A stretch of DNA of 64,000 bases. Origin: Syntrophomonadaceae bacterium (GTDB lineage Bacteria > Bacillota > Dethiobacteria > DTU022). Made by a program: the position numbers and the translations under genes. The stretch covers positions 28,102 through 92,101 of the forward strand of contig PWYU01000084.1 in NCBI GenBank assembly GCA_003567725.1, written 5' to 3'. Position 1 is the first letter of the stretch. The number at the start of each line of letters is the position of its first letter. Of this stretch, positions 13,078 to 58,879 are shown in pieces. Below the pieces are notes generated by a model. That model was not told the origin of the DNA and ran no database searches. It worked only from the letters and a program-made list of their open reading frames with translations.

Positions 13078-13752
<675 letters not shown>

Positions 13753-13808
13753 TCATATACCTGAAAAAGTTGCCCAGGTGTTTATGGTAGGAGGAGGTAT
13801 GTAAATAG

Positions 13809-16817: not shown

Positions 16818-17763
16818 AAAAAAAGATAAAAAAAGGCAGGAAAAAGAATTTGAACCGGATTTAAGCGTTGACCTGGCCGGAATTGTTCTAAAAAACCCTG
16901 TTTTGGCTGCTTCGGGGCCCTTTGGTTACGGGCACGAATATGGTGAATTGACCAACTTTAAAGACCTGGCCGGTATTATAGTCAAGGGTGTTTCCCTGGA
17001 ACCCTGGCCGGGCAATTCCCCTCCACGAATAAGTGAAACTCCTGCGGGCATGTTGAATGCGGTGGGTTTACAAAATCCGGGTTTGCGAAATTTTATAAAA
17101 GAAGATTTGCCCCGCCTGCGTAATTGCGGCCTGCGCCTCATTGTCAACGTGGTCGGATGTACCATGGATGAATACGCCGGAGTGGCTTGCGGGCTTGCGG
17201 GGGAAGTAGGGATTGACGGCCTGGAATTAAATATATCCTGCCCCAATATAAAAGCGGGGGGTATGGCTTTCGGCACCGACCCGGCGGCAACCCGGCAGGT
17301 GGTAGAAGCTGTCCGCCGCGAAACTAAACTGCCTTTATTGGTCAAGCTGTCACCTAATGTTGCTGATATTGGTATCATGGCCAGGGCCGCTGAAGAAGCA
17401 GGGGCAGATGGCATATCTTTAATAAATACCCTTTCCGGGATGTTGATCAATACTGCTGACAAAAAGCCCCTGCTGGGCAATACTTTTGGCGGCCTTTCCG
17501 GCCCTGCTATAATGCCTGTGGCCCTAAAAATGGTCTGGCAGGCTGCTGAAGCAGTAAAAATACCAGTCCTGGGGATGGGTGGAATAACTACGGCTGATGA
17601 CGCCCTGCAGTTTATTATGGCCGGGGCCCGGGCTGTAGCAATTGGAACAGGTTTGTTTTACAACCCGGAACTGGCCACGGTCATTAAAACCGGTCTTGAA
17701 AGATACTTAAAAAAAGAAGGCCTTCTAAACCTGGATCAGCTCGAAGGCATCGCCCGATCCTGA
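16810..17763 (+). CDS. pyrD: dihydroorotate dehydrogenase catalytic subunit (class 1B)
   Basis: Motifs LKNPVLAASGPFGYG, NISCPN and GGITTADDA. Confidence 0.9.
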   Translation: MDEKKDKKRQEKEFEPDLSVDLAGIVLKNPVLAASGPFGYGHEYGELTNFKDLAGIIVKGVSLEPWPGNSPPRISETPAGMLNAVGLQNPGLRNFIKEDLPRLRNCGLRLIVNVVGCTMDEYAGVACGLAGEVGIDGLELNISCPNIKAGGMAFGTDPAATRQVVEAVRRETKLPLLVKLSPNVADIGIMARAAEEAGADGISLINTLSGMLINTADKKPLLGNTFGGLSGPAIMPVALKMVWQAAEAVKIPVLGMGGITTADDALQFIMAGARAVAIGTGLFYNPELATVIKTGLERYLKKEGLLNLDQLEGIARS

Positions 17764-17844
17764 ACAGGGCTGGGGCGTTCAGCGGGAAAAAAGGCCCGCC
17801 GGGATAAAACTCAGAACCCCGTAACTTGGGCAGCGGTGCGGCGG

Positions 17845-17960
17845 GAGACTAAAGCATCAATGGGAACGGTTTGAGCGGCGCCATGGGGACCCTTTGAGCG
17901 TCCCGAAGCGCAGCGTAGGCCGAAGGGAAGACGATGGAACCGTCCCCGTGGCTTACAGAT
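17845..17960 (+). ncRNA. copy A of a three-copy structured leader element (hairpins GGGAC..GUCCC and GACGAUGGAACCGUC, then CCGUGGCUUA)
   Basis: Shares an ordered motif set with 35150..35240 and 36480..36560. Lies in the 235-nt pyrD-pyrF spacer. Confidence 0.4.
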
Positions 17961-17998
17961 TTAAGCCGCTCACTATATTATGAAGGGCAGGAGTTAAA

Positions 17999-18742
17999 AT
18001 GACAGCTAATAATGAGGCCAGAACCGGTTCAGCCAGGGAAAAAGATTTTTCTCCCGGCCAGTTGATTATTGCCCTTGATTATTCTGACCCCGGCCAGGCC
18101 CGGGAACTGGTTGAAAAGCTTAATCCCCTTGGGGTTGGTTTTAAAGTGGGACTGGAGCTATTTTTAGCCGGCGGCCCCCCCCTGGTCAAAGAACTGGCCC
18201 GGCGTTCTCCTGTTTTCCTTGATCTAAAATTCCACGATATTCCCAATACGGTGGCTGCTGCTGTTAAATCAGCGGCCTCTCTTGGGGTGTGGATGCTCAA
18301 TGTCCATGCTGCCGGGGGTAAAAAGATGCTAAAGGCCGCCCGGGAAGCCCTGCAAGATCAGAAGCATAAACCGATTCTTTTAGCCGTAACTGTGTTGACC
18401 AGCATGGATGACCAGGAAATGGCCGAAACCGGCTGCCCCGGTACGACCGGTGAGCGGGTGATCCGGCTGGCCCGCTTAAGCGCTGAATGCGGTTTGGACG
18501 GGGTGGTCTGTTCTCCCCTTGAAATTGATCTGGTTAAAAACCATGTTTCCGGAAATCTGCTCACCCTTACTCCAGGGATCAGGCCCGCCGGCGAAAATGC
18601 CGGCGATCAAGTCCGGATTGCTACCCCGGACAGGGTGATCGAGGCCGGCGGTGATTACCTGGTTGTTGGCAGGCCTGTTACCAGGGCTCCTGATCCTTAC
18701 AAAGCAGTGCAGAACATCTTTGCTGCTATGCAAATTGTTTGA
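17999..18742 (+). CDS. pyrF: orotidine 5'-phosphate decarboxylase
   Basis: IIALDYSD...GFKVGLELF and DLKFHDIPNT motifs. Confidence 0.85.
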   Translation: MTANNEARTGSAREKDFSPGQLIIALDYSDPGQARELVEKLNPLGVGFKVGLELFLAGGPPLVKELARRSPVFLDLKFHDIPNTVAAAVKSAASLGVWMLNVHAAGGKKMLKAAREALQDQKHKPILLAVTVLTSMDDQEMAETGCPGTTGERVIRLARLSAECGLDGVVCSPLEIDLVKNHVSGNLLTLTPGIRPAGENAGDQVRIATPDRVIEAGGDYLVVGRPVTRAPDPYKAVQNIFAAMQIV

Positions 18743-18761
18743 TCAAGTAAAGGAGGATATA

Positions 18762-19346
18762 ATGAAAGATAATCACAACCTTAACCGGTCAAACCTCTTT
18801 GAACTGCTAAAAGAGACCGGGGTTATTATGGACGGGCATTTCCTGCTTACCTCCGGAAGGCATAGCGCCCGTTTTCTGCAGTGTTCTCAACTGATGCAAT
18901 ATCCGGAGCATGCGGAAAAAGTGTGCCGCCTGGTGGCCGCACCCTTTACAGAGAAGCAGATCCATACCGTGATTGGACCTGCCATGGGCGGGGTAATTAT
19001 GGCTTATGAAACAGCCCGGGCCCTGGGGGCAAGGGCGCTCTTTGCCGAGCGTACAGAAGATGGGCTAATGGCCCTGCGGCGTGGTTTCCGGGTTGAAGCA
19101 GGCGAAAGGATCCTGGTGGTGGAAGATGCGGTTACTACGGGCGGTTCGGTCCGCAAGGTCCTTGATTTACTGGAAAAAGCCGGTGCAGAGATTGCGGGGG
19201 TTTCAATTATGATCGACCGGACAGCCGGCAAACTCAAATTTGATGTACCCGTGCACTCCCTTATTTCGATGGAGATTGAATCTTTTACCCCGCAAGAATG
19301 CCCCCTGTGCCGGGACGGTATCCCTCTTTACAGGCCGAAGGGTTAA
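18762..19346 (+). CDS. pyrE: orotate phosphoribosyltransferase
   Basis: PRPP-binding motif VVEDAVTTGGS. ATG at 18762 is preceded by an AAGGAGGA RBS; the upstream part of the track ORF overlaps pyrF and is not coding. Confidence 0.85.
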   Translation: MKDNHNLNRSNLFELLKETGVIMDGHFLLTSGRHSARFLQCSQLMQYPEHAEKVCRLVAAPFTEKQIHTVIGPAMGGVIMAYETARALGARALFAERTEDGLMALRRGFRVEAGERILVVEDAVTTGGSVRKVLDLLEKAGAEIAGVSIMIDRTAGKLKFDVPVHSLISMEIESFTPQECPLCRDGIPLYRPKG

Positions 19347-22835: not shown

Positions 22836-24107
22836 ATGAAAGCAAAAGCCCTGACTGTTATAACTGGTGTCCTGCTTCTTACTGCCGCAGCAGCCTGGCT
22901 GTTAAGAGTGGAGTTTGCCTTTTTTAGTAATTTTTATCTCCTCTATCTCGGTTTGCTCCTGGCTTTGCTGGGGCTGACCTTTATTCTGCTGCAATTTATA
23001 TTAGCATCAAGGATAAAAATACTGGAGAGAGGGTTTGGCTTAGACCGGATGTTTAGCTGGCACCGCATTTTTGGTCGGGCCGGTTTGATTATGGTTACCT
23101 TGCATGCGGTGTTGATCGTGGCCTTTCGGTTAAGTTATTTTGGCCAGATCTTTTTTAATGTTTTTATATTTTTAGGAGTGCTGGCTTTGCTGGGTTTTAT
23201 GGTAACCGCCGGGTTGGCCTCGACTTACAAGAAGATCGGTCTGGCTTATGAAACCTGGCGCAACATTCACCTGGCTAACTATGTCCTTTTCCCTGTGGTC
23301 ATGGTTCATGCCTTTTATCACGGCCCACCGGGCTCCTTGCTCTACTACTATCTATATTTACTGGGCCTGCTTTTTTTGGCCGTTATAATCTATCGCCTGG
23401 TGAGGATTATTTCTATGCGCCGCAACCCTTATGAAGTGACTGAAGTCCGGCAGGAAGCAGATGATATCTGGAGCCTGTTTTTTAAAGGTCCCCGCCTGGA
23501 TTTTAAGCCGGGGCAGTTTATGTTTATCCAGCTTTTTAGGGATGGGCAGCTCTCATCTCCCCATCCTTTTACCATATCAGCCAGCCCTACAGCTGAAAAC
23601 CTCTCCATTACCCCCAAAAAATTGGGCGATTTTACGATGACCATCAAGGATACCAGGCCCGGTGACAGAGCCTATATTGATGCTCCGTACGGGGTGTTTA
23701 GCTTCCTTAACGTTGCACCCGGTGAACTGGTATTTATAGCCGGCGGTATTGGCATTACCCCTTTTATGAGCATGCTTCGCTACAGCTATGATCATAAGCT
23801 TGATCAAAAGGTAACTTTATTCTGGGCCAACCGCAGCGAAAAAAATCTCTGTTTTCAGGAAGAACTGGAAACCATGCAAAAAGAAATGCCCGGCCTGAAA
23901 GTAATCCCGGTCATGTCTGATCAACCTGACTGGAGCGGTGAAAAAGGCCATATCAAAGCCCCGGTGCTTATGAATTACCTGGAGTCCCTGGGCAATAAAG
24001 AATATTTTGTATGCGGCCCTCCGGCCATGAGCAGGGCTGTCATCAATGAACTCAAGCAATTAAATGTATCATCTTTAAAAATACACACTGAACTATTTGA
24101 GCTGTAA
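22836..24107 (+). CDS. ferric reductase-like transmembrane protein fused to an FAD/NAD-binding oxidoreductase domain (NOX/FRE-type)
   Basis: Six TM helices with conserved His pairs, the HPFTISASP FAD motif, and GGIGITPF NAD motif. Confidence 0.65.
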   Translation: MKAKALTVITGVLLLTAAAAWLLRVEFAFFSNFYLLYLGLLLALLGLTFILLQFILASRIKILERGFGLDRMFSWHRIFGRAGLIMVTLHAVLIVAFRLSYFGQIFFNVFIFLGVLALLGFMVTAGLASTYKKIGLAYETWRNIHLANYVLFPVVMVHAFYHGPPGSLLYYYLYLLGLLFLAVIIYRLVRIISMRRNPYEVTEVRQEADDIWSLFFKGPRLDFKPGQFMFIQLFRDGQLSSPHPFTISASPTAENLSITPKKLGDFTMTIKDTRPGDRAYIDAPYGVFSFLNVAPGELVFIAGGIGITPFMSMLRYSYDHKLDQKVTLFWANRSEKNLCFQEELETMQKEMPGLKVIPVMSDQPDWSGEKGHIKAPVLMNYLESLGNKEYFVCGPPAMSRAVINELKQLNVSSLKIHTELFEL

Positions 24108-38513: not shown

Positions 38514-39695
38514 TTAATGGGCTTCCACTTTAATATCGTCTGTCCGACTTGAATCCTCTATAGCCCGGTCCAGGTCGGCGTGCCCCAGGCCTAAAGCCCT
38601 GCCGATGATGATAATATTATCTGAGTTTATTTCTCCTGGTTCATAATCCGCTTTTTTCACCGGCAGCGGTATTTCCCCTGCCGCTGTATTTTTCATCAGC
38701 GACCGGTAACCGGAGATCAGGCTGTGTTTGCATGTATTGAGGCAAAAGTTTGCTTTCAGGGCTTTGGTTTTGCCATTTTGATTATTTTGACCGGGCTCAT
38801 AAGTCACCGCTTTGCCCTTTCCTGATTCTTTGGCCCAATAAAGGGCATGGTCGGCATGCTGAATCAGTTCCTTGAGATCCCGGCTCCTGTCCGGATAGGA
38901 CGATGCGCCAATTGACAGGGTCGGCTTAACGCCGTTTTTAATTTTTCCGGGCAGTTTTCGGCCGGTATAGTTTTGAGCCAGGCGTTTGGCCAGCAGCACT
39001 GCTTCATGAGCGCTGGTGTCCGGCAGGATAATTACAAACTCATCTCCCCCGTAGCGGCAGACTATATCATGAATCCGCACCATTTTTTTAAGAAACTGGG
39101 CTGTATCCTTTAGAACCCGGTCTCCAAGCAAATGCCCGTTCTGGTCATTGAATGTTTTAAAATTATCCAGGTCGATAAAGAGCAGGGCCACAGGGCTGCC
39201 GTTTCTCTTGGAACGGGCAATTTCTTCGGTTAAGCGCTGCTGGAAATAGCGGTGGTTGTATATTTCGGTCAGGCAGTCCATGTTTGAAATCCATTCTAAG
39301 TTTTGCCGGTGCGCTTCTTCCTTCCCTTTAAAAAAAGCGATGATCAGTGAACCAAGGCTGGAATAGACCAGCATGGAAATAATTGCCATAACAGCGCCGT
39401 TTCCGGTTGCCGACCAGTGATTATAGAGCAGGGCTGCAGCTGTAAAGTTTGCTGTCAGGGCAATAACCAGTCCGGAATAATTGTACAGAAAGGTTATGAT
39501 AATAGCGATAATAGCCACCGCGGGCAATAAGAATAACCTGGTTGCAGATGGCAAAGCCCATCCCGCCATAACAGTTAGAATCAAAATAAACAGGGCTGCC
39601 CCGGCCAGGTAGAAGCAGGTTTTGTTCATCAACGAATCCAACCCGGTTAAAAAGACGGCTCTTTTAAAGCCCATACTGATCTTTGCCATTATCAA
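38514..39695 (-). CDS. membrane-anchored diguanylate cyclase (canonical GGDEF, intact I-site) with ~110-aa C-terminal extension
   Basis: RIHDIVCRYGGDEF, preceded by multi-TM sensor region. Confidence 0.75.
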   Translation of the reverse strand: MIMAKISMGFKRAVFLTGLDSLMNKTCFYLAGAALFILILTVMAGWALPSATRLFLLPAVAIIAIIITFLYNYSGLVIALTANFTAAALLYNHWSATGNGAVMAIISMLVYSSLGSLIIAFFKGKEEAHRQNLEWISNMDCLTEIYNHRYFQQRLTEEIARSKRNGSPVALLFIDLDNFKTFNDQNGHLLGDRVLKDTAQFLKKMVRIHDIVCRYGGDEFVIILPDTSAHEAVLLAKRLAQNYTGRKLPGKIKNGVKPTLSIGASSYPDRSRDLKELIQHADHALYWAKESGKGKAVTYEPGQNNQNGKTKALKANFCLNTCKHSLISGYRSLMKNTAAGEIPLPVKKADYEPGEINSDNIIIIGRALGLGHADLDRAIEDSSRTDDIKVEAH

Positions 39696-39821
39696 TAACC
39701 TCTGCTTTCTTTAAGACTGGAGTGTTAAACTCGTGTTGTAGGAATGTTTTCTTATTATCGCTTTGCAGTTATTATCGGCAGGAAAAAGCTTTAATTAACA
39801 GGCAAAGGGCGGGTTATTCAT

Positions 39822-39855
39822 AAAAAGCCCGGAAGAATTCTTTTCCGGGCTTTTT
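39822..39855. terminator. bidirectional intrinsic terminator (AAAAAGCCCGGAA-GAATTC-TTCCGGGCTTTTT)
   Basis: Perfect 10-bp stem flanked by A5 and T5 runs, 19 nt downstream of the RnfD-like gene's 3' end. Confidence 0.6.
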
Positions 39856-39873
39856 AAAGTGTTTGTAAAAAAT

Positions 39874-40731
39874 TCAGGCTGCCTTTGGTTTTGGTTTGGG
39901 CCTGGTATAGTGGTTAATGATAGGCACAAAGAGGTTCATTCCGATGATGGCAAAGGTGGTTCCTTCCGGCAGCCATCCCCAGAGGCGCATTGCCATAATG
40001 ATCAATCCTACCCCGAAGCCGAAGATGTAGCGGCCGGGCTGGGTCTTCGGTGACGAAGAAGGATCCGTGGCCATGAAAAAAGCGCCGATTAAAAGGCTTC
40101 CCGATAGCAGGTGAAACAGGACATCTTGTCCGGTCAAAATGCAGATCAGGACCACTGCAGAAAGGCAGCTCAGGGGAATACGCCAGTTGGCGTAGCGCTT
40201 ATAAATTAACCAGCCACCACCGAGCAGAAGCAGCAGGGCTGAAGTTTCTCCCAGGCTGCCCGGGATTGTCCCTAAAAACAGGTCCTGCAGAGGGGTTAAG
40301 GTTCCTTCACTGCGTGCTATTTGCAGCGGAGTTGCTGTGGCAACCCCATCAAAAGGGGTAAGCCAGGGGGCCATAGTGCCGGGGAAAGCGTAAATAATGA
40401 AGATCCGGCCGAATAAAGCCGGGTTAAAGATATTTTTGCCGTAACCTCCAAACAGCTGCTTGCCCACGACTATTCCAAAAACTGCTCCGGACGCCACTAC
40501 GTAAAGAGGCAGGGAAGGGGAAACTGTCAGGGCCAGGAGCAGCCCGGTAACTACGGCACTTAAGTCTTTGATTTTTAAAGGTTTTTTTGTAAAATATTGA
40601 TATAGAGCTTCCGAGGATACTGCGGCAGATATACTGATAGTAATAAGCAAAGCGGCGTTCAGGCCGTATGAATAGATGGCAAAAATCGTTATAGGTATCA
40701 GGGCTAGAAGCATTCCTTTCATCATTTTCAT
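39874..40731 (-). CDS. RnfD/NqrB-family membrane protein (orphan, compact 285 aa)
   Basis: Strong matches to the RnfD conserved blocks GKQLFGGYGKNIFNPAL, GAFFMATDPSSSP and NLFVPIINHYTRPKP. No other rnf/nqr genes are nearby. Confidence 0.7.
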   Translation of the reverse strand: MKMMKGMLLALIPITIFAIYSYGLNAALLITISISAAVSSEALYQYFTKKPLKIKDLSAVVTGLLLALTVSPSLPLYVVASGAVFGIVVGKQLFGGYGKNIFNPALFGRIFIIYAFPGTMAPWLTPFDGVATATPLQIARSEGTLTPLQDLFLGTIPGSLGETSALLLLLGGGWLIYKRYANWRIPLSCLSAVVLICILTGQDVLFHLLSGSLLIGAFFMATDPSSSPKTQPGRYIFGFGVGLIIMAMRLWGWLPEGTTFAIIGMNLFVPIINHYTRPKPKPKAA

Positions 40732-40873
40732 AACTATTCCTCCTTATTTATATAAATATTATAGAACAAATAGGATATTCTATCAAACTGGTGCGGCAGG
40801 AATTAAAGTTCTTTTGCAGAACAATTATTTCATAGAGAAACAGCATTGCAAGTTTTTAAAGGAGGAGACCACC

Positions 40874-41413
40874 ATTTCTGGCTACAAAAAACTGGAAGAA
40901 ATCTTTGAAAACCACAATTATAAAGATTACCGCTGGATTAATGCCTCCCAAATAATGGTTGCCAACTGGGTGCGTTTTAAATGTATTTTTGGCTGCGTCA
41001 GCTATGGCAAGAAAGGTTCCTGCCCGCCCCAGGTCCCGTCAGTAGAAGAATGCCGCGCTTTTTTTGGCGAATATGATCAGGCTGTGATCTTTCACATTGC
41101 TAAAATAGTGGAAAAACCCGAAGACCGGGTCGCCTGGAGCAGGGAAGTTAGTAAAGAGCTGCTTAAGGTGGAACGGGAAGTATTCTGGGCCGGTTATCAT
41201 AAGGCTTTTATGCTTTTTATGGATGAATGCCGCCTCTGTAACGGCTGTACCGGCACAAGGGAAGCCTGTGTAAATAAAGAAGATTCGCGTCCCGGGCCCG
41301 AGTCGCTTGCCGTTGATGTTTTTTTAACTGTGCGCAGTGTAGGCTACCCGATTGAAGTCCTTTCTGGTTATGACCAGGAAATGAACCGTTACGCTTTCCT
41401 GCTGGTTGAATAA
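40874..41413 (+). CDS. DUF2284-like cysteine-rich predicted metal-binding protein; start codon uncertain (non-ATG)
   Basis: RVRLKC..GC..YGK...CPP and later C..C.GC clusters match the DUF2284 pattern. AAAGGAGGAG RBS at 40857 but no ATG/GTG/TTG within normal spacing; ATT at 40874 is assumed. The long track ORF overlaps the opposite-strand RnfD-like gene. Confidence 0.45.
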   Translation: MSGYKKLEEIFENHNYKDYRWINASQIMVANWVRFKCIFGCVSYGKKGSCPPQVPSVEECRAFFGEYDQAVIFHIAKIVEKPEDRVAWSREVSKELLKVEREVFWAGYHKAFMLFMDECRLCNGCTGTREACVNKEDSRPGPESLAVDVFLTVRSVGYPIEVLSGYDQEMNRYAFLLVE

Positions 41414-41419
41414 ATCATT

Positions 41420-41458
41420 AAAAAGTCCTTCCCCGGCCAGTAAGCAGGGAAGGACTTA
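41420..41458. terminator. bidirectional terminator between the convergent DUF2284 and ferritin genes (AGTCCTTCCC...GGGAAGGACT)
   Basis: 10-bp perfect inverted repeat with flanking A and T runs. Confidence 0.55.
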
Positions 41459-41486
41459 TAGCTTTAAACTAAAACATCAGGCTCGT

Positions 41487-42002
41487 TTAAGCACCCTCAG
41501 GTGTAAAGCTTCTGGCGGCCAGTTCACGGTCCAGCATGAGGATACCGTGCCCGGTTTCACCGACTCGCTTCAGCTGGTTTAGAAGTTTGCCCATAGTGGC
41601 CTCTTCTTCCACCTGCTCATCAACAAACCACTGCAGGTAGCTAATGCTGGGGTAGTGATTTTCTTCCTGTGCTATAGCCATCAGCTCGTTAATCAGGCTG
41701 CTTACCAGCTTTTCATGTTCTAAGGCCAGGGTAAAGATCTCTTCGGCCGATTTGAAGTCCCGCTTGGGATCTTTAAAACCGGTAATAACTGCTTCTTCAC
41801 CCTGATCATAGATAAAGTTAAAAAACTTCATAGCATGATAACGCTCTTCTTCGGCCTGCACCTCAAAAAAATTGGCGAAACCGTCCAGGTCTTCCTTTTT
41901 AAAATAGGCGGCCATAGCCAGGTAATAGTGGGCGGAAAAAAATTCATGGGTGATTTGTTCATTCAGTTTGGATAATAATTTTTCTGAAAGCATATCGATC
42001 AT
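41487..42002 (-). CDS. ftn: bacterial non-heme ferritin
   Basis: Ferroxidase-centre ligand pattern (E..H, E..E..H, QWFV.EQ.EEE) typical of Ftn. Confidence 0.8.
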   Translation of the reverse strand: MIDMLSEKLLSKLNEQITHEFFSAHYYLAMAAYFKKEDLDGFANFFEVQAEEERYHAMKFFNFIYDQGEEAVITGFKDPKRDFKSAEEIFTLALEHEKLVSSLINELMAIAQEENHYPSISYLQWFVDEQVEEEATMGKLLNQLKRVGETGHGILMLDRELAARSFTPEGA

Positions 42003-42677: not shown

Positions 42678-45356
42678 TTATACTTTTTCCAGGTTAATGG
42701 CGCAAACTTTTAATTCCGGGATGTTTGCTACCGGGTCCAGCTCGGAGTTGGTGAGCTGATTGGCACACGTTTCAGCAAAATGGAAAGTCATAAACACAAT
42801 GCCTTCCTTTAAGTCCGAAACAGGTTTGACTTCAGCTTCGACTTCACCCCGCCTGGAGGTCAGGCGCACCTTATCGTTTTCATTCAAACCCATGCGTTCT
42901 GCGTCTTCCTTGCTGATCAGAGCTTTTTCTACATTGTAAAGATCACTTAACCCATCTGAACGCCGGGTCATGGTCCCGGTATGGTAATGATAAAGTGATC
43001 TGCCGGTGGTGAGAATGAATGGGTAGTCCTGATCGGGAGTTTCAGCCGGGGGCTTATAATCTACCGGCTTAAACTGGGCTTTGCCGCTGCCTGTCAGGAA
43101 TTTTTCTTCATATAGGATCGGTGTGCCCGGGTGGTTTTCGTCCGGGCAGGGCCAGCATATACCGCCTTCTTCGAGCCTTTCGTAGGTGATACCTTTCCAT
43201 TTTGGGCTAAGTTCTGCAACTTCCTGCATAACTTCGCCAGGTTTTTTGAATTCGAATCCTTTCAAGCCTAATTTAAGGCCCAATTTGCAGAGAATTTCAA
43301 AGTCGCTCCTGGCTTCACCCGGAGGATTGATCGCCTTACGGCCCCGCTGGATCCGCCGCTCAGTGTTGACAAATGTGCCGTCTTTTTCGGCGAAAGAAGC
43401 TGCCGGCAGCACGACATCGGCGTAATCTGCAGTTTCTGTGAAGAAAAGATCCTGAACAACAACCAGCTCCAATTTTTCAAGGGCATCCTTGATTTTGCAG
43501 ATGTCTGGTTCACTGACAACGGGGTTTTCACCCATGATATAAACGCCTTTAATTTTATCTTCCAGCGCAGCTTTAAACATCTTGGTCATGGGCATACCCG
43601 GCTTATCGGGGATCTTAGCGCCGTAAGCTTCAGAGAATTTCTGGTTTGCTTCCGGCGAACTTACCGGTTGATAACCGGGGAAGACGTTGGGCAGTGCGCC
43701 CATATCGCAGGCCCCCTGCACGTTATTCTGGCCGCGCAGCGGATTGACGCCGCCGCCTCTTTTACCCATGTTTCCGGTTAAGGTAGCCAGCCCGGCCAGG
43801 GCTAAGACATTGTCCGTGCCGCTGGTGTGCTGGGTGATGCCCATGGTATAAAGAATGGCAGCCGGGTCGCTTCCAGCGTAAATTCTGGCCGCCTGGGTGA
43901 TCTTTTCCGCCGGAACCCCGGTAATATCGGCCATTTCGTTCAAATCGATAGCACGGATTTTTTCGGCATATTCCTCGAACCCTTCGGTCCGGTTTTTGAT
44001 GAATTCAGCATCGTAAAGCTCCTCATCGATAATTACCCTGGCCATGCCCTGCAGCAGGGCGGCGTTGGTTCCCGGTTTAAGCTGGAGGAATACATCTGCT
44101 TTCTCCGCAATCTTGATCCGCCTGGGATCGGCTACGATCAATTTGGCGCCGTTTTTAACGGCCCGTCTGATCCGGTAGCCAATAACGGGGTGAGTTTCAG
44201 TGGTATTGGAACCGATAATGAAAAAGGCTTTCGCTTCATCAGCGATGTCATCAATACTGTTGGTCATCGCGCCACTGCCAAATGTTGTAGCCAGACCGGC
44301 TACAGTCGGCGCGTGTCAGAGACGGGCGCAGTGATCGACGTTGTTTGTGCCAAGAGCCCGGAAGATCTTTTGAAATAGATAATTTTCTTCATTGGAGCAC
44401 CGGGCAGAGCTGATGGCACCTAGGGCGTCGGCGCCGTGTTTTGCTTTGATATCATGCATTTTGTCAGCAATGAAATCTAAAGCTTCATCCCAGGTAGCTT
44501 CTACAAATATGCCATCTTTTTTGATTTTCGGTTTTTTAAGGCGTTCCGGGTGGTTAATAAAATCAAATCCAAAGCGTCCCTTCACGCATAGATCACCGCG
44601 GTTTACCGGGTTGTCACGGTTTCCGTCCACTTTGATTACACGGTCACCGCGCACCCCTATCTTGACCCCGCAGCCTACTCCGCAGTAGGTGCACACGCTT
44701 TCCACCTCGCGCTCTACTAAGGCTGGTTTGGCCAGGTAGAGGGCACCGGTCGGACAGCGCACCAGGCATTCGCCGCAGGATTCACACTTTGAATCTTTAA
44801 GCGGCTTGTCTCCTAAAACAGAAACCCTGGTGTGGAAACCGCGGAAGGCAAAATCAATGGCCGCGACCCCGTTAATCTCTTCGCAGGTGCGAATGCAGAT
44901 TCCGCATAAAATACAGCGTGTAAAATCGCGGTGGAAAAAAGGATTACTGTCATCTGGTTTGACCGCTTCTACCGAGCGGCGAATTTTGCGCATCCGGTCC
45001 TGGTTAATCCCCACAAAAGCGCTCACTTCCTGCAACCTGCAGCTATTGTTCCGCGAACAGCCCTGGCAGTCCTTGTTATGGCTGGCCAGGATCAGCTCCA
45101 CGTTGGTCAAACGGACTTTACGCACTTCCTCCGTATCAGTCTTGACTATCATACCGTCTTTTACCGGGGCCCGGCAGGCGGTAACAATCTTGCCGTCAGC
45201 ATCGACCATACAAATCCGGCAGCCGCCGAAAGTGGGAAGATCAGGGTGATGGCAGAGGGGGGGGATATAGATGCCCGCTTGTTCCGCTGCTTCAAATACG
45301 GTTATTCCCTTTTCGACTTCAATATCTAAACCGTTAATTGTTATTTTTAGCATCAT
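42678..45356 (-). CDS. fdhA: formate dehydrogenase alpha subunit, selenocysteine-containing (NuoG-like 2Fe-2S/4Fe-4S N-terminus plus Mo-bisPGD catalytic domain); in-frame UGA at 44316..44318
   Basis: The two track ORFs 44316..45356 and 42678..44267 are contiguous in frame across a TGA: ...[31 protein letters not shown]..., which aligns with the E. coli FdhF Sec140 region CARV-U-HGPSVAGL...GNGAMSN. Confidence 0.8.
44270..44318 (-). promoter_or_regulatory. bacterial SECIS element: UGA, 11-nt spacer, then hairpin UGUAGCC-GGUCU-GGCUACA
   Basis: Minus-strand mRNA immediately 3' of the UGA forms a 7-bp stem with a GGUC-containing apical loop at the canonical 11-nt spacing. Confidence 0.55.
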
Positions 45357-47267
45357 TTAACCTTCCTTTCCACTAGCCGCAGCAGCCAGATTTTCTTTTC
45401 CAGTCAGGCGCACCACCGCGCTGAAGCGCTCGGGGCATTCCTGGAAGCAGATGCCACACTTGGTGCATTTGTTCTGATCAATCGTATGCGGCACTTTCTT
45501 TTCGCCGCTAATCGCCTCGACCGGGCAAGCCTTACGACAGCGCCCGCAGGCGGTACATTTTTCTTCATCAATATGAAACACGATCAGGTTCTTGCAAACC
45601 AGCGCCGGGCAGGCATGATCCTTGATATGGGCTTCATACTCGTCTCTAAAGTACTGGATGGTGCTCAAAACCGGGTTGGGCGCTGTCTGGCCCAGCCCAC
45701 AGATGGAACCCTTAATAATTGAATCGCCCATCTCGAGCAGATACTCAATATCACCTTCCCGGCCCCGGCCTTCGCAGATATCATTTAAGATTTCGAGCAT
45801 TTGCTGGGTACCCTGGCGGCAGGGGACACACTGGCCGCAGGATTCTTCGAAGGTAAAGTCAAGGAAGTAGCGGGCCACGTCGACCATGCAGGTAGATTCA
45901 TCGATGACGACCATACCGCCTGAGCCCATCATTGAGCCGGCTTTGACCAGGGTATCGAAATCGACTGCCAGGTGCAGTTTATCCTCTGGCAGGCAACCGC
46001 CGGAGGGACCGCCGGTCTGAACAGCTTTGAACTTTTTATCGTCCAAAATGCCTCCGCCAATTTCATATATTATTTTCTTTAACTCAATACCCATGGGCAC
46101 TTCGATCAATCCGCTGCGGTTGATCTTGCCGGTCAGGGCAAAAACGGCCGTGCCGGGGCTGCCTTCTGTGCCGATACTCTTAAACCAGTCGGCTCCTTTG
46201 CTCAAAACCTGGGGCACCACGGAAAAGGTTTTCACATTATTCAAAAGAGTGGGCTTGCCCCACAGGCCTTCCTCAGTTGTCCTGGGACGCGGCAGGGGCT
46301 TGGGCCAGCCGCGGTTACCTTCGATGGACATAACCAGGGCCGTCGATTCTCCGCAGACAAAAGCGCCTGCGCCTTGAAATATTTCCAGGTCAAAATTAAA
46401 ACCAGTGCCGAGGATATCATCGCCGAGCAGATTTTTTTCTTTGGCCTGAGCAATGGCTTTACGCAGCCGTTTAATAGCTAAAGGATATTCTGCGCGCACG
46501 TAAAAATAGCCTTTTGAAGAACCGATGGTATAACCGGCAATGGTCATGCCCTCGATTACCGAATGGGGATCTCCTTCTAAGACCGAACGGTCCATGAAAG
46601 CCCCGGGGTCGCCCTCGTCAGCATTACAGATTACGTACTTTTGATCGGCCTGGGGTTTTAAGCAAGATTCCCACTTGCGCCCGGCCGGAAAACCAGCGCC
46701 CCCGCGCCCGCGCAGGCCGGAGTCTTTAAGGACACTGATTATATCCTCCTGCTTCATTTCCAGGGCTTCGGCCAATCCTTTGTAGCCGCCGTGGGCAATG
46801 TATTCATTAATATTTTCGGGGTCGATTATACCGCAATTTTTTAAGATTACACGCTGCTGGTTTTTAAAAACATCTCCGGTATCGATCCGCTCCACATCTG
46901 CGGGTCCGCCTTCGCCGAAATAGCCGAGGGCTAAATCGGGCCGGTGGTCGTCTTTAACGAGATAGCTATCCACTATTTCTTCGGCTGTTTCAGGAGTTAC
47001 TCCATGGTAGGAAATACGCGGTTGGCCCGGCTTGATCACATCTAAAAGGACTTCGGCAAAACACATTCCGATACAACCTACTTCTTTGATCTCGGCCTTG
47101 ATGTTTTCTTTTTCCAATTTATCGGTGATAGTTTGAACTACTGACTGGGCTCCGGTGGCATTGCCGCAGGTGGCGCAGCCAACATAAATCTGTGGGATGT
47201 CGCTTTTTTGCTCTTTCTCCAGGTTTTCCAGGGCTTCTTTTTCGATTACATCAAACTTTTGGATCAC
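45357..47267 (-). CDS. NuoF/HndC-like FMN- and NAD(P)H-binding subunit with N-terminal thioredoxin-like 2Fe-2S domain and C-terminal 2x[4Fe-4S] ferredoxin domain (formate dehydrogenase beta / diaphorase subunit)
   Basis: NuoF motifs (RGRGGAGFPAGRKWE, FMN/NADH fold, C-terminal CxxCxxC 4Fe-4S). N-terminal CATCG...CIGMC 2Fe-2S. Two CxxCxxCxxxCP ferredoxin motifs. Confidence 0.8.
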   Translation of the reverse strand: MIQKFDVIEKEALENLEKEQKSDIPQIYVGCATCGNATGAQSVVQTITDKLEKENIKAEIKEVGCIGMCFAEVLLDVIKPGQPRISYHGVTPETAEEIVDSYLVKDDHRPDLALGYFGEGGPADVERIDTGDVFKNQQRVILKNCGIIDPENINEYIAHGGYKGLAEALEMKQEDIISVLKDSGLRGRGGAGFPAGRKWESCLKPQADQKYVICNADEGDPGAFMDRSVLEGDPHSVIEGMTIAGYTIGSSKGYFYVRAEYPLAIKRLRKAIAQAKEKNLLGDDILGTGFNFDLEIFQGAGAFVCGESTALVMSIEGNRGWPKPLPRPRTTEEGLWGKPTLLNNVKTFSVVPQVLSKGADWFKSIGTEGSPGTAVFALTGKINRSGLIEVPMGIELKKIIYEIGGGILDDKKFKAVQTGGPSGGCLPEDKLHLAVDFDTLVKAGSMMGSGGMVVIDESTCMVDVARYFLDFTFEESCGQCVPCRQGTQQMLEILNDICEGRGREGDIEYLLEMGDSIIKGSICGLGQTAPNPVLSTIQYFRDEYEAHIKDHACPALVCKNLIVFHIDEEKCTACGRCRKACPVEAISGEKKVPHTIDQNKCTKCGICFQECPERFSAVVRLTGKENLAAAASGKEG

Positions 47268-47709
47268 TTTTTTCTAGAACCTCCTTTGCCTGTTTCGGAA
47301 CAAGACGCCCGAAAACATCGTCATCAACCATAACCACGGGGGCCAGCGCACAGGAGCCGACGCAGTTTACCCGTTCCAGGCTGAACTTGTAATCCGGTGT
47401 GTTTTCACCGGCCTTGATCCCCATTTCACGTTCTAAGGCATCCATAACCTGCATGCCGCCCCGGACGTGGCATGCCGTTCCCAGGCACACTTTCACCGAT
47501 CGATCGCCGCGCCGGCTGAAATAGAACTGGGAATAAAAAGTGGCAGTACCATAAACTTTGCTTTCCGGTATGCCGATATGGTCGGCAATATCCCGGATTG
47601 CTTCTTCCGGCAGGTAACCGATTTCGTTCTGAACCGCTTGTAGCATGGGGATTACTTCGTTGGGTTTACCTTCAAAACCTGATAAAACTTTTTTGGTTTG
47701 TTCCTGCAA
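47251..47709 (-). CDS. NuoE/HndA-like thioredoxin-fold 2Fe-2S subunit
   Basis: Cys pattern C..C....C...C (CLGTACHVRGG...CVGSCALAP) typical of NuoE 24-kDa subunits. Overlaps the nuoF-like start by 17 nt. Confidence 0.8.
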   Translation of the reverse strand: MQEQTKKVLSGFEGKPNEVIPMLQAVQNEIGYLPEEAIRDIADHIGIPESKVYGTATFYSQFYFSRRGDRSVKVCLGTACHVRGGMQVMDALEREMGIKAGENTPDYKFSLERVNCVGSCALAPVVMVDDDVFGRLVPKQAKEVLEKSDPKV

Positions 47710-53576: not shown

Positions 53577-56285
53577 TCAAAAAACTTCAAAAAAATGTTC
53601 CAGCAGCTCTGGATCGAGCCTGGTCCCAGCCTGGGTTTTTAACCGGGCAGCAATTTCCGGCCCTGTTTTTTCCTCCTGGCTTTTTGCTCCATGAATAAGA
53701 TCCTGGTAAGCTTCTGCAATGGCCAGGATGCGGCACTCCACCGGTATATCTCTGCCTTTCAGGCCGGAAGGGTAGCCCGAACCGTCCCAGTTTTCATGAT
53801 GGCATAAAATCAGCTCTGCTATCTCAGATAATTCAGGTGAGGCCTGGGCCAGGCGGTAACCTCTTTCAGTATGCTGGCGGATTCTTTCTTTTTCCGGTTC
53901 GCTTAATTGATCTGCCGGCTTATTTAATAATGCCTCTTTAATGGTGACCATGCCGAGTTCACGGACCTGGGCTAAAAGCAGCAAATTGGAAATCTTTTTT
54001 TCATCACGTGAGATTTTACGGCCCAATTTTAAGCAAAGTTCCTGCAGCTTATCATTGTCGGCTTTCAGGTGGCAATCCCTTTCATAAAGGGTTGCCAGAA
54101 GAAATCTGATTATATTCTCCTTGGCATTGCTGCTGTGTTTGAGCTTGTTTTTATACATTAAATCATCGGCGGCCTGGTAGGTCTCTTCCAGGGTTTGACT
54201 GCCGTTTTCGTTGACGGCCAGGCCCAGGGAAATACTCAAGAACAGGCCGGTACTATTTTCGTTATATTCTGCTAAGCGGTTTTCAATTCGCTTGAGCAGC
54301 GCCTCTCCATCTTTGCGGTTGGTTTTAGGAAGGATAAGCACAAATTCATCTCCACCTACCCGGGCTAAGATATCGGCGCTGCGCAAAGAGCTCTTTAAAA
54401 AAGCGGCGCTCCTCTGCAGGTAAAGGTCACCTTCATAATGGCCGATGGCGTCATTGACAAGTTTTAAACCGTCTAAATCGGCTGAAATAATGGCAATGGG
54501 ATAATTGCGTGAATTTTCAAGGCGTTTAAGTTCGTTTACAAAATAATGGCGGTTGTATAAGCCGGTTAGTTGATCATAAAAGCTCAGGCGCCTGATTCGT
54601 TCTTCAGACTGGTGCCTGATCAAGGCATTACTGATCAGTTCAGCGACTACATTCAAGAGGGTAATCTGGTTATCCAGCCAGAATTTTTTTTCTTTAACAG
54701 CATCGAAGCCCAAAAACCCGAAGAGACGGCCGTTTTTTCTAATCGGCACGCATAGAAGAGATTTTATATCCTGATCTTGAAACACTCGTTTTTCTTTTGC
54801 TGCCTCAACAGGAAGATTATCAACATCCGGAATATGGACATAATCATCATGCTTGATTTTTTCCGCCCACCAGGGTAAGGCTTCAAGGTGATGATTCTGG
54901 TTGTTATCTTTTTGAGGGGTGATCCCTGCTGCGCACCATTCATGGGTATTACTCATCAGTTTTCTATCTTCTGAAAAGCGGAACAGGTAGCTGCGATCTA
55001 CTGCAAAAAAAGCGCCGGTTGCCTGCAGGGCATAGTTAATGCCTCTATCCAGGTTTTCAGGAGGCAGGCTGATGAAAAATGAGGAAAGGTTTGAAATCAA
55101 AGTTTCAAAGGCAAATCTTTCATGAGCAATTTTTTCTGCTGCTTTGCGCTCTGTGATATCTCGGGAAATACCGAATATGCCGGTAGGTTCGTCTTCCTGG
55201 TTGCGTAAAAAATGCATTTTTATTTCGGTCCAGATCTTACTGCCGTTTTTGCAATAATGCTCTATTTCCAGTTCTTGAACTCTGTTCCAGGCGTTTTTTT
55301 CATTTTGTTCCAAAGAGACTGCTTTCTGAAAAAGCATTATGGCTTTGTCAAGTGATGCCGGGGTAAGGGTGGTGCTGATATTTTCGCCAATTAATTCTTC
55401 AGGGCTGAATCCAAGCAATTTTTTGACCGAGGGGCTGATGTGGGTATAGGTTAAGTTCATATCACAGGTCCAGACTATATCACTGACGTTTTCAGACAGC
55501 AGGCGGTATTTTTCTTCACTTTTTCTTAAATCCTGTTCCTGTTTTTTCTGGTCCGTCACATCTCTCAGCTGTTCAATAATATGCATTATATTGCCGTTTT
55601 GATCTAAAATCGGGTTGCTGTGGCAGTCTAAATAGAGATCCATTTCGGGGACATATATTTCTACCCTTTCTATTTGCTTGGTTTGCAAGGCCTTCCTGGT
55701 GGCGCACTTTTCGCACTCCCGGTCCCTTCCGATTAATTCGTAACATTTCCTGTTTTTAACCTGCTCCGGACCTAAACCCAGTAAGTTGTAACCGGCCTGG
55801 TTGTAACGCTCAACCGTGTAATCGGGGTACTGGAGCGCTAAAACATCGGGGATAGCATTAAAAATACCTTCGAGCAGCCTGTTTTGGCTGGCCAGCGCTT
55901 CTTCTGTTTCCCTTTGAGCGGTAATATCCCTTACCCACTCTATTATATATTTTACCTCATTATTTTGATCAAGAATGGGAATAACCCTTTGATCAAGCAA
56001 GGTACCATCCTGCAAGCGGGCTTCCTGCTGGAAAGGCTCTTTGGTTTTAAAAACTTCTACCGCCCGGCACTCAGGGCAGATTTGATCAAAGCCCCTGTAG
56101 GTCCGGTAGCATTTGGTTCCAGGCAACCTTTTATCTTCTGCGACGTCCCCAAATCCCTTCCAGTTGCTGTAGATGATCTTCATATCAGGATCCTGGATGG
56201 ATATCAGATCCGGGATCAAATCCAGCAGTTTATCTGAAGACTGCAGTAAAGTTTTAATCAAGCTTTTTTCCGGCTTGCTGTTCAT
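53577..56285 (-). CDS. multidomain c-di-GMP signalling protein: Cys-motif PAS x2, PAS, GAF, GGDEF (RVGGDEF, I-site RSAD), then HD-GYP with HD replaced by RE
   Basis: GGDEF and HHENWDGSGYP motifs are present. The position aligned to HDIGK in the paralog reads VRELGM. Confidence 0.8.
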   Translation of the reverse strand: MNSKPEKSLIKTLLQSSDKLLDLIPDLISIQDPDMKIIYSNWKGFGDVAEDKRLPGTKCYRTYRGFDQICPECRAVEVFKTKEPFQQEARLQDGTLLDQRVIPILDQNNEVKYIIEWVRDITAQRETEEALASQNRLLEGIFNAIPDVLALQYPDYTVERYNQAGYNLLGLGPEQVKNRKCYELIGRDRECEKCATRKALQTKQIERVEIYVPEMDLYLDCHSNPILDQNGNIMHIIEQLRDVTDQKKQEQDLRKSEEKYRLLSENVSDIVWTCDMNLTYTHISPSVKKLLGFSPEELIGENISTTLTPASLDKAIMLFQKAVSLEQNEKNAWNRVQELEIEHYCKNGSKIWTEIKMHFLRNQEDEPTGIFGISRDITERKAAEKIAHERFAFETLISNLSSFFISLPPENLDRGINYALQATGAFFAVDRSYLFRFSEDRKLMSNTHEWCAAGITPQKDNNQNHHLEALPWWAEKIKHDDYVHIPDVDNLPVEAAKEKRVFQDQDIKSLLCVPIRKNGRLFGFLGFDAVKEKKFWLDNQITLLNVVAELISNALIRHQSEERIRRLSFYDQLTGLYNRHYFVNELKRLENSRNYPIAIISADLDGLKLVNDAIGHYEGDLYLQRSAAFLKSSLRSADILARVGGDEFVLILPKTNRKDGEALLKRIENRLAEYNENSTGLFLSISLGLAVNENGSQTLEETYQAADDLMYKNKLKHSSNAKENIIRFLLATLYERDCHLKADNDKLQELCLKLGRKISRDEKKISNLLLLAQVRELGMVTIKEALLNKPADQLSEPEKERIRQHTERGYRLAQASPELSEIAELILCHHENWDGSGYPSGLKGRDIPVECRILAIAEAYQDLIHGAKSQEEKTGPEIAARLKTQAGTRLDPELLEHFFEVF

Positions 56286-56665: not shown

Positions 56666-58879
56666 TTAGAGCCACTCATCTATAACGGGCAAAAACAGTT
56701 CGATCAGCTCTGGATCAAACTGGGTTCCGGAGCAGCTCATGAACTCCGCTTTAATATCACTTTTACTCATGGCCCTTTTGTAAGGCCGGCCGTTGGTCAT
56801 TACTTCAAAAGAATCGGCAATGGCGGTGATGCGGGAAAGCAGGGGAATGTCCCATTCCTTCAATCCTTGCGGGTAGCCCTTGCCGTCCCAGCGTTCATGA
56901 TGGGCCAGAATGTCTTCTGCTACATGTTTAAAATCATCGCTGGCCCAGGCGATGCGAAAGCCAATTTCGGGATGAGTCTTGATTACAGCCCACTCCTGTT
57001 CAGTTAGAGGGCCATTTTTGGTTAAAATCTGCTCGGAAATATTGATTTTCCCAATATCATGCAGAGTAATGAGCAGTTTCAGGCGGCTTTGCTCGGCATC
57101 GGTCAGTTTTAGTTTATGGCCGATTATTTGGCCTACGGCCTGCATGCGCCTGGTATGGGCCTCGGTTTCAAAACTTTTTTCAGCCAGGGTTGTTAACAGG
57201 GTCTGCAAAACGGTGTTTTTCGCGCTGCGGCTCTCTGTCAATTTTCTCCTGTTCAGATTGTTTTCTGCTTCCCGCAGGGTATCAAAAAGAACCCCTGCAG
57301 CTTCTCTTTGCTCCGCCAGTCCCAGGGTTAAAGATAAAGGAACCTCTTCCTTAAACTGTTCTGAACAGGCCTGATCAATGCTTTTGCAAACTTTACTGGC
57401 CTCTTGAAGGCTTGTTTGCGGCATCAAGATTATAAATTCATCGCCGCCCCAGCGGGCAAGGATATCATTTTCCCGGCAGCACTGTTTTAAAATTAAAGCT
57501 GCAGTTTTTAACAATTCATCACCAAAATTGCTGCCGTAAGAATCGTTAATGAGCTTTAAACCGTTTAAATCAGCGATGATAATGCTGATGGGATACTGGT
57601 TTAGCAGGGCGGTATCATTGATTAATTCTTCGAAGTAGTAGCGGTTGTAGAGGCTGGTAAGGCTGTCATGGCGGCTTAAGTGCAGCAGTTCCTGCTCGGT
57701 TTTTTTATGTTCAGTTATGTCGATATGGGTGCCTACGGTAATGTCGGTTAAGCTCCCGTCAGGTTTTTTTAAAGTCTGCCCGCGAGACCAGATCCATACC
57801 CAGTGGCCGTCTTTATGCAGCATTCTGAAAGAATTCTCATACAACCCCGGAGAACCGCTGGTGAGGTAATCTTTAAAACGTTTTGCAGCCTTCTCATTGT
57901 CGCCCTGGTGCATCAGGTCGTTCCAGGTCACTTTAAGATTGGGCCGGCCGTCCATAATGTAATCAGATTGCTTTCGACCCAGCATCTTAAAATATTCCGG
58001 GCTGCACCACAGGTAGCCGGTCTTTCTGTTGTATTCCCAGGCACCGGTATTTGAGACCGTGATAATTGATTTGTAGCGTTCCCAGCTTTCCTTTAAAACA
58101 TCCTCGGTTTCTTTTTGCCTGGTTATATCCTGGGTTATGGCCAGTAAGGAAGTAACCTTGCCATCAGTTCCGTTTCGCTCCGGTATTATCCTGGTAGATA
58201 AGAGCCTGCGGCCTTCTGGTAAAGATAGGAAGCCTTCATGGAGCTGTTCCTTCCCGCTGTTTAAGGATTGCTTTAAAAACTCATGACGGGCTTTGAGCTG
58301 CTCTTTAAGCTCAGGGGTGGGGCTGTTATCTGCCAGGTCCAGAAAAGATTTGCCTTTAAGTTGGTCAAAGGGAATACCAAACAGGCGCTCTAAGGCTTTG
58401 TTAATATAAAGATGTTTAAGCCTGCTGTTAAAACGAGCGATTAACAGGGGCAGGTTATCCATAATTGCAGCAAGTTCGGCTTCAGGGTTTACGTCCGTAC
58501 AGGCTTCTTTTTGCTTTGCCATATCATGCAGGTAAAGGGTGATAAGATCTGGTTCATGGACGTAAGCCGCAATTTCATACCAGCAGTGGGTTGATTGGTT
58601 GTATTTGACCATCCGGGTGTTTTCACCTACATTTTTTAACTGGCTGTATATGCTGAACCATTCAATTTGCAAGCCTTGAGTGATAAAAGGACAGTCTCTA
58701 ACCGATTTACCGACAAGATCTGCTTCAGAAAGCCCGCTGATATTTTCAAAAGCAGGGTTTACATATACAAAAATATAGTCAACGGGATTACCGCTGTCAC
58801 CACGCACCACCATCTGCTGAGCAAAAGCTTTTTCCGAATGAGTATGTAATTGTTTTTGCTGTTTATCTCGGCCGGGCAT
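56666..58879 (-). CDS. PAS x3-GGDEF-HD-GYP bifunctional c-di-GMP cyclase/phosphodiesterase (all catalytic motifs intact)
   Basis: RWGGDEF with REND I-site; HDIGK; HHERWDGKGYP. Confidence 0.8.
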   Translation of the reverse strand: MPGRDKQQKQLHTHSEKAFAQQMVVRGDSGNPVDYIFVYVNPAFENISGLSEADLVGKSVRDCPFITQGLQIEWFSIYSQLKNVGENTRMVKYNQSTHCWYEIAAYVHEPDLITLYLHDMAKQKEACTDVNPEAELAAIMDNLPLLIARFNSRLKHLYINKALERLFGIPFDQLKGKSFLDLADNSPTPELKEQLKARHEFLKQSLNSGKEQLHEGFLSLPEGRRLLSTRIIPERNGTDGKVTSLLAITQDITRQKETEDVLKESWERYKSIITVSNTGAWEYNRKTGYLWCSPEYFKMLGRKQSDYIMDGRPNLKVTWNDLMHQGDNEKAAKRFKDYLTSGSPGLYENSFRMLHKDGHWVWIWSRGQTLKKPDGSLTDITVGTHIDITEHKKTEQELLHLSRHDSLTSLYNRYYFEELINDTALLNQYPISIIIADLNGLKLINDSYGSNFGDELLKTAALILKQCCRENDILARWGGDEFIILMPQTSLQEASKVCKSIDQACSEQFKEEVPLSLTLGLAEQREAAGVLFDTLREAENNLNRRKLTESRSAKNTVLQTLLTTLAEKSFETEAHTRRMQAVGQIIGHKLKLTDAEQSRLKLLITLHDIGKINISEQILTKNGPLTEQEWAVIKTHPEIGFRIAWASDDFKHVAEDILAHHERWDGKGYPQGLKEWDIPLLSRITAIADSFEVMTNGRPYKRAMSKSDIKAEFMSCSGTQFDPELIELFLPVIDEWL

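Follow-up and report, generated by a model that had tools for sequence, protein, structure and literature searches.

In the prevailing view, RnfD/NqrB is an obligate subunit of two ion pumps, Rnf and Nqr. What, then, could an RnfD that is encoded on its own do? This question is raised by a 64,000-nucleotide stretch of DNA from a Syntrophomonadaceae bacterium (contig PWYU01000084.1, positions 28,102 to 92,101; hereafter the window, to which positions refer unless another locus is named), in which a gene on the minus strand (39874..40731) encodes an RnfD-like protein of 285 amino acids. A sequence-only reading of this DNA had noted the gene beside those for a DUF2284 protein and a ferritin, and all three open reading frames (ORFs) are present where it placed them. 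We find that the RnfD-like gene is a true, selected, stand-alone RnfD paralogue and that it belongs to a distinct clade in Bacillota without the N-terminal arm of canonical RnfD.

Family membership was assessed with profile searches and structure prediction. The protein matches PF03116 (NQR2_RnfD_RnfE) at 331.9 bits (E = 4.8e-99; cut-off 27.7), and this sole Pfam domain spans residues 2–280 of 285. Among NCBIfam models, it scores 258.7 bits with TIGR01946 for rnfD (cut-off 207) and falls far under the cut-offs of the equivalog models for rsxD and nqrB (for nqrB, 157.8 bits vs 349.9 with TIGR01937 and 184.3 vs 414 with NF003756). It shares its Pfam and NCBIfam family with the canonical RnfDs of solved structure, 7ZC6_D from C. 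tetanomorphum and 9ERI_D from A. woodii, to which it aligns end to end (residues 3–279) with 41–43% identity over the membrane domain (43% to 7ZC6_D). An AlphaFold2 (AF2) model (predicted local distance difference test score, pLDDT, 88; predicted template modelling score, pTM, 0.86) adopts the 10-helix inverted-repeat fold of RnfD, with template modelling (TM) scores in Foldseek of 0.93 to 7zc6_D and 0.92 to both 9eri_D and 8ahx_D. NqrB (V. cholerae, 7XK3 chain B) also has a homologous fold, a covalent flavin mononucleotide (FMN) on threonine and a riboflavin site, but it is ~30% identical over its C-terminal 220 residues, the match runs from NqrB residue ~150 onwards, and the N-terminal amphipathic helices of the quinone site and a ~50-residue extracellular insertion are its own. 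The earlier description of the protein as compact is slightly overstated: it is short, but its 285 residues amount to a full-length RnfD minus the N-terminal arm and a few loop residues.

In canonical RnfDs, the arm that precedes the first transmembrane helix (TM1) contains a motif of the type SSPHxxS. The window protein begins at TM1, and the number of residues before this helix has a median of 2 in its clade (at least 232 cluster sequences, Bacillota) compared with 22 in 80 canonical RnfDs. The ~20-residue arm is missing from every clade member, and alignments of these proteins to the canonical hidden Markov model (HMM) begin at HMM position 27. Vitt et al. described the 20 N-terminal RnfD residues as "completely buried inside RnfC", which explains why the membrane fraction contains RnfC (PMC9588780). 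Loss of this RnfC-buried arm thus favours a function apart from the canonical complex.

A start-codon or gene-calling artefact as the source of the short N-terminus was ruled out. The ribosome-binding site AAGGAGG (40739..40745, minus strand) lies 7 nt 5' of the ATG, and an in-frame TAA (40744–40746) is found five codons 5' of it. With this strong ribosome-binding site and the stop codon, the start is unambiguous and has no upstream extension; since the TAA excludes a longer start, the absence of the arm is real. A sigma-70-type promoter-like site, TTGATA-17-TATAAT (40758..40786, minus strand; a consensus match only, 11/12), is situated 27 nt 5' of the ATG, and its −35 and extended −10 elements are kept in a relative that is 81–83% identical (L003). 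At the other end of the gene, 18 nt past the stop codon, is a hairpin terminator of the bidirectional type (39821..39856), with a 14–16 bp stem and A/T runs on both sides; at −21.3 kcal/mol (z = −4.9), its RNA fold was matched in stability by 0 of 200 shuffles. The profile matches and this hairpin bear out the initial description of an RnfD/NqrB-family protein with its own strong terminator. With its own promoter-like site, ribosome-binding site and terminator, the gene appears to be monocistronic. Neither in the window nor at six related loci did Rfam searches at the gathering threshold give a riboswitch or leader 5' of the orphan gene. An inverted repeat inside the window promoter (ATAGAA-N11-TTCTAT) was considered as a shared operator and dropped, since it is not conserved in the 83% relative.

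To place the gene in its genomic context, HMMs for RnfC, D, G, E, A and B were built from the Pfam-verified operon of Clostridium tyrobutyricum and relatives. Applied to the 64-kb window, they recovered this RnfD and one weak 55-bit "RnfC" match only. The latter is the NuoF-like gene (45357–47267) of a formate dehydrogenase cluster and is matched because it shares the Complex1_51K domain. Pfam scans of ~45 window ORFs gave no Rnf-Nqr, FMN_bind or ApbE domain, so that the original statement that rnfC/G/E/A/B and nqr genes are lacking in the window holds. The surroundings of the RnfD-like gene were also inspected in clade members, at ten different neighbourhoods and as far as 10 kb out (less on one side where a contig ended), and no rnf, FMN_bind or ApbE gene was found in any of them. 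For comparison, 80 canonical RnfD loci (40–53% identity) were taken from among the matches listed in a contig scan. Two or more further rnf genes are adjacent to rnfD in 75 of these; four of the remaining five carry rnfC and are cut by the contig end. The fifth (L006, 15–803) is orphan-like, with a partial gene of 53% identity in a metagenome-assembled genome of a soda-lake Spirochaetaceae, the closest match outside the clade among the matches listed. It has no rnf genes downstream, the gene is cut by the contig start, and it may be an orphan outside Bacillota.

The genes that flank the orphan RnfD vary between lineages. Synteny in a 99% relative (L001) is identical to that of the window, and in the 83% relatives (L003–L005), a xanthine-dehydrogenase-type cluster separates the RnfD and DUF2284 genes. 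The gene likewise stands alone among unrelated neighbours in Dethiobacter alkaliphilus (L002) and at L086, and in Proteiniclasticum ruminis (L098), it is found near the contig start with a convergent gene downstream. Nitroreductase genes flank it on both sides at L087, an ABC transporter lies 3' of it at L088, L089 and L090, and two FMN_red genes lie 5' of it at L091 and L092. At L091 (8272–9934), the two FMN_red genes and a bPH_5 gene are directly 5' of the orphan RnfD on the same strand, and at L087 (5207–5325 and 10904–13708), the two-sided nitroreductase genes are accompanied by an energy-coupling factor (ECF) transporter under FMN-riboswitch control at 4.7 kb. That riboswitch was considered as a regulator of the orphan RnfD and rejected, as it belongs to the distant transporter. 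Such flavin-related genes are inconsistent across loci, and their presence may be due to chance. An RNase P RNA gene (L088, 9482–9853; 292 bits) was also seen ~150 nt 5' of the orphan RnfD.

A functional gene is expected to be under selection and to have conserved relatives. Compared with L003, the RnfD-like gene exhibits a ratio of nonsynonymous to synonymous substitution rates (dN/dS) of ~0.04, with a proportion of nonsynonymous differences (pN) of 0.113 and of synonymous differences (pS) of 0.735, the latter being saturated. There are hundreds of full-length relatives of 277–300 amino acids with 60–99% identity, and the named sources of the clade include Dethiobacteria, D. alkaliphilus, Peptococcaceae, Eubacteriaceae, Erysipelotrichaceae/Erysipelothrix and P. 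ruminis. An exhaustive HMMER search over 1.84 billion representatives at 50% identity returned a single representative for the clade, P0241 (363 bits, with residues 1–274 aligned to 1–274), and every other RnfD-family protein lies beyond a gap of 100 bits. Of the proteins below this gap, nearly all align with an N-terminal offset of ~20 residues or more. The clade is thus set apart from canonical RnfD by this gap, by a clade-specific switch at about ten otherwise conserved positions, by a five-helix linker that is a few residues shorter and by the fact that it was not encoded with rnfC/G/E/A/B at any neighbourhood examined.

Canonical RnfD carries a covalently bound FMN, and the residues involved can be traced by alignment. 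The motif D128-G-V-A-T-A-T134-P-L136 of the window protein (40324..40350, minus strand) aligns to LDGVTTAT153PL of C. tetanomorphum RnfD (7ZC6_D), where T153 bears the covalent FMN (PMC9588780); T134 corresponds to T153 and is the predicted attachment site. The equivalent threonine is invariant in all 232 clade members, within a D-x-x-[s/t]-x-A-T pattern, which answers the question raised in the sequence-only reading of whether the FMN-attachment threonine is kept. Four further residues, R109, E162, D223 and T258, align to R130, E185, D248 and S284 of C. tetanomorphum RnfD, which are located around the FMN or at a putative Na+ site (PMC9588780). Wherever an alignment column is ≥90% conserved in canonical RnfD, the clade conserves it too, and the clade-specific switches affect some ten further positions (for example, P to S71, W to Y77, G to S212 and V to T258). 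Judging from these residues, we infer that FMN is attached at T134 by ApbE, and by analogy with RnfD/NqrB, the protein would also bind riboflavin.

What might such a protein do? The two flavins of RnfD within the canonical complex, FMN and riboflavin, are separated by ~8 Å and form a link between RnfC and the FMN that RnfG carries on the extracytoplasmic side (PMC12174285). Because its two flavins bridge RnfG and RnfC, RnfD is in principle a transmembrane wire. The best reading of the orphan protein, which we hold tentatively and at somewhat less than an even chance, is therefore that of a flavinylated, RnfC-independent transmembrane electron-transfer module. ApbE would attach FMN covalently at the outer face and riboflavin would be bound at the inner face, as in RnfD/NqrB, and the protein could then serve as a two-flavin electron conduit across the membrane without RnfC, joining a redox partner in the cytoplasm that is not RnfC to a flavoprotein or acceptor on the extracytoplasmic side. 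The suggestion that the orphan is a separate flavin-dependent membrane redox module is in this sense consistent with a selected, stand-alone gene whose product has kept the threonine and lost the arm; its extension to a unit with DUF2284 and ferritin is not (see below). A narrower version, in which a monomer or homo-oligomer of RnfD suffices by itself as a two-flavin wire with covalent FMN outside and riboflavin inside, is doubtful, although conceivable.

Several observations weigh against this interpretation. The C-terminal tail, which also touches RnfC in C. tetanomorphum, is retained in the clade at a length similar to that of canonical RnfD. Because gene neighbourhoods vary by lineage, they do not point consistently to any donor or acceptor. 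The absence of rnf and apbE genes covers the window and the ten neighbourhoods, and a canonical rnf operon may be present elsewhere in the genome. In addition, we know of no RnfD that is stable or active without RnfA, RnfE and RnfG.

In the main rival reading, the protein is an alternative D subunit of an RnfA/E/G(/B) core encoded elsewhere, forming an RnfC-less complex that would pass electrons from ferredoxin to an acceptor other than NAD+. Every universal RnfD residue is conserved, as is the five-helix linker, the part in contact with RnfG; no RnfD has been shown to function by itself; and canonical Rnf is found in related soda-lake Bacillota such as 'Ca. Contubernalis alkaliaceticus' (PMC10608574). 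However, rnfA/E/G/B genes were not found near the orphan in the ten neighbourhoods examined, and the switches at S71, Y77, S212 and the other clade-specific positions affect residues that canonical RnfDs conserve. The proteins also form a single tight clade spread over several Bacillota classes, a distribution that suggests a function contained in one gene and moving with it. We consider an alternative D subunit unlikely on balance, although it is the rival that has most to be said for it.

Whether RnfD itself serves as an ion channel or as an electron relay is a matter of debate (PMC12174285), and the orphan could instead be a channel or transporter (for example, of Na+/H+ or of flavin) in which the bound flavin is structural or regulatory. 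The RnfD fold is distantly akin to that of urea, ammonium (Amt) and Rh transporters (Foldseek ranks 16–45; PMC12174285), with which it shares a 5+5-helix inverted repeat (TM ~0.45–0.5), and D223, which aligns to the proposed Na+ site D248, is conserved. Flavin-related genes are also found near some members, namely the FMN_red pair of L091 and the nitroreductases and ECF transporter of L087. In contrast to the RnfD-like protein, these transporters bind no flavin cofactors, have an open solute channel and are trimeric, and they exhibit no significant sequence similarity to it. The flavin-related neighbours are common genes that are inconsistently present, and the gene has no upstream riboswitch, either in the window or at the six related loci. 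The threonine is invariant (232/232) and the residues around the FMN are conserved, which points to a redox cofactor that has been kept; given this invariant flavinylation site, we rate a role as channel or transporter lower, as improbable.

A third possibility, drawn from the gene neighbours named in the sequence-only reading, is that RnfD, DUF2284 and ferritin form an iron- or metal-linked membrane redox unit. The DUF2284 gene (40874..41413, plus strand; 179 amino acids) is divergent from RnfD, and between the two, both in the window and in the 99% relative, lies a common control region of 142 bp. A profile search confirmed the family (PF10050, 147 bits vs a cut-off of 25, E = 5e-43). Cysteine is invariant at 8 positions in 16 DUF2284 sequences, and the predicted fold is nitroreductase-like, which together suggest that DUF2284 is probably a redox protein; no sequence relative of it was found in the PDB. 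The non-canonical start noted earlier is also upheld. The ATT at 40874 lies 6 nt past AAAGGAGGAG, and the initial methionine of many 179-residue homologues aligns exactly to it. In the 83% relative, where gene callers shorten the protein to 147 amino acids, stop codons and no ATG, GTG or TTG are found 5' of the conserved N-terminal residues. The ATT at 40874 is, on this comparison, most likely the translation start.

Synteny, however, speaks against a functional unit. The ferritin gene (41487..42002, minus strand; 171 amino acids; PF00210, E = 3.6e-41) is convergent with DUF2284 and adjoins it in L003 and in L093–L096, whether or not RnfD is present. In L003–L005, the cluster between RnfD and DUF2284 comprises three genes of a xanthine-dehydrogenase-type molybdenum (Mo) enzyme, and in L093–L096, DUF2284 lies 16 nt 3' of such genes. 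The latter loci have the same flanks as the window (S49 peptidase, Yip1 and trypsin-like protease on one side; ferritin, NuoE/F and formate dehydrogenase on the other), and both RnfD and a membrane GGDEF diguanylate cyclase are absent. In the window, this cyclase gene (38514..39695, minus strand; PF00990, E = 3e-48) lies 3' of RnfD as a separate transcription unit, and it adjoins RnfD only in close relatives (L001 and L003–L005). Since L093–L096 keep the flanks without either gene, RnfD and GGDEF show the pattern of an insertion or deletion relative to these loci. The genes that regularly accompany DUF2284 are those for ferritin and the Mo enzyme. Neither DUF2284 nor ferritin was found near RnfD at seven more distant orphan loci, the pairing of RnfD with DUF2284 is confined to close relatives, and RnfD is absent from a distant DUF2284 locus. 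The genes are neighbours through local synteny; the candidate gene pair was rejected, and a joint unit with ferritin is not supported. We regard such a unit as largely refuted and very unlikely.

Finally, the gene is the sole rnf gene in 64 kb and is shorter than a typical rnfD, as a decaying or truncated, non-functional remnant of an rnf operon might be, but a remnant is hardly credible given a dN/dS of ~0.04 with saturated synonymous sites, the many conserved full-length relatives, the intact promoter, ribosome-binding site and terminator and a complete fold that is confidently predicted.

The preferred reading of an RnfC-independent electron-transfer module was also compared with systems described in the literature. 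The view that RnfD/NqrB has no known function outside its complex holds in general, although a two-subunit Nqr/Rnf-like system, in which electrons would cross the membrane one way, has been proposed on bioinformatic grounds (PMC8238504, PMC10979944). Both that system and the orphan place an RnfD/NqrB-type membrane domain outside a full Rnf or Nqr complex. In the two-subunit system, a C-terminal NAD-binding domain of the NqrF type (PF00175) is fused to the RnfD-like domain (PMC8238504, PMC10979944), an RnfG-like FMN_bind gene is adjacent, and the flavinylation threonine is lost (PMC10979944). The window protein differs in all three respects, having neither the fusion nor the adjacent FMN_bind gene and keeping the threonine. 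Full-text searches of the literature returned no description of a stand-alone, arm-less RnfD. 'Ca. Syntrophonatronum acetioxidans', for which the main text gives only RnfC, RnfD and RnfG, was considered as a published orphan (PMC6295475) and rejected, since the supplement places RnfD beside RnfG and RnfC beside RnfG on short contigs, that is, as fragments of a canonical operon.

Other features of the window were recorded alongside. Two ORFs of 346 and 529 amino acids (42678–45356, minus strand) constitute one selenocysteine-containing formate dehydrogenase alpha subunit, with the TGA at 44316–44318 in the junction VDHCARL-TGA-HAPTVAGL; gene callers also split this gene in L001. NuoF-like (636 amino acids) and NuoE-like (152 amino acids) genes lie 5' of it (45357–47709, minus strand). 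A 423-residue protein (22836–24107, plus strand) combines a ferric-reductase-type transmembrane domain with FAD_binding_8 and NAD_binding_1; with this NOX/FRE-like architecture, it is another protein of the window that may transfer electrons across the membrane. Together with the neighbour of RnfD, four GGDEF-domain proteins are encoded in the 64 kb, all on the minus strand (2628–3782, 38514–39695, 53577–56285 and 56666–58879), and two of these carry PAS/GAF sensor and HD-GYP-type HD_5 domains. An ordinary-looking pyrimidine biosynthesis cluster (13129–19346, plus strand) encodes a PyrR-like protein, aspartate carbamoyltransferase, dihydroorotase, the dihydroorotate dehydrogenase B pair, orotidine monophosphate (OMP) decarboxylase and orotate phosphoribosyltransferase.

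Annotation pipelines name the proteins of this clade "RnfABCDGE type electron transport complex subunit D", and because they are named as ordinary RnfD, metabolic reconstructions may wrongly infer an Rnf complex. An arm-less clade that keeps the flavin site and is always solo amounts to a natural dissection experiment on RnfD, and it would let the flavin-to-flavin transmembrane electron transfer and the ion conduction of RnfD be tested in isolation. If the protein were indeed a self-sufficient wire, the clade would represent a minimal flavin-only electron conduit, and extracytosolic or extracellular electron transfer in Gram-positive anaerobes could then proceed independently of Rnf, quinones and cytochromes. 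The clade could thereby reveal a new, small extracytosolic electron-transfer route in alkaliphilic and fermentative Bacillota.

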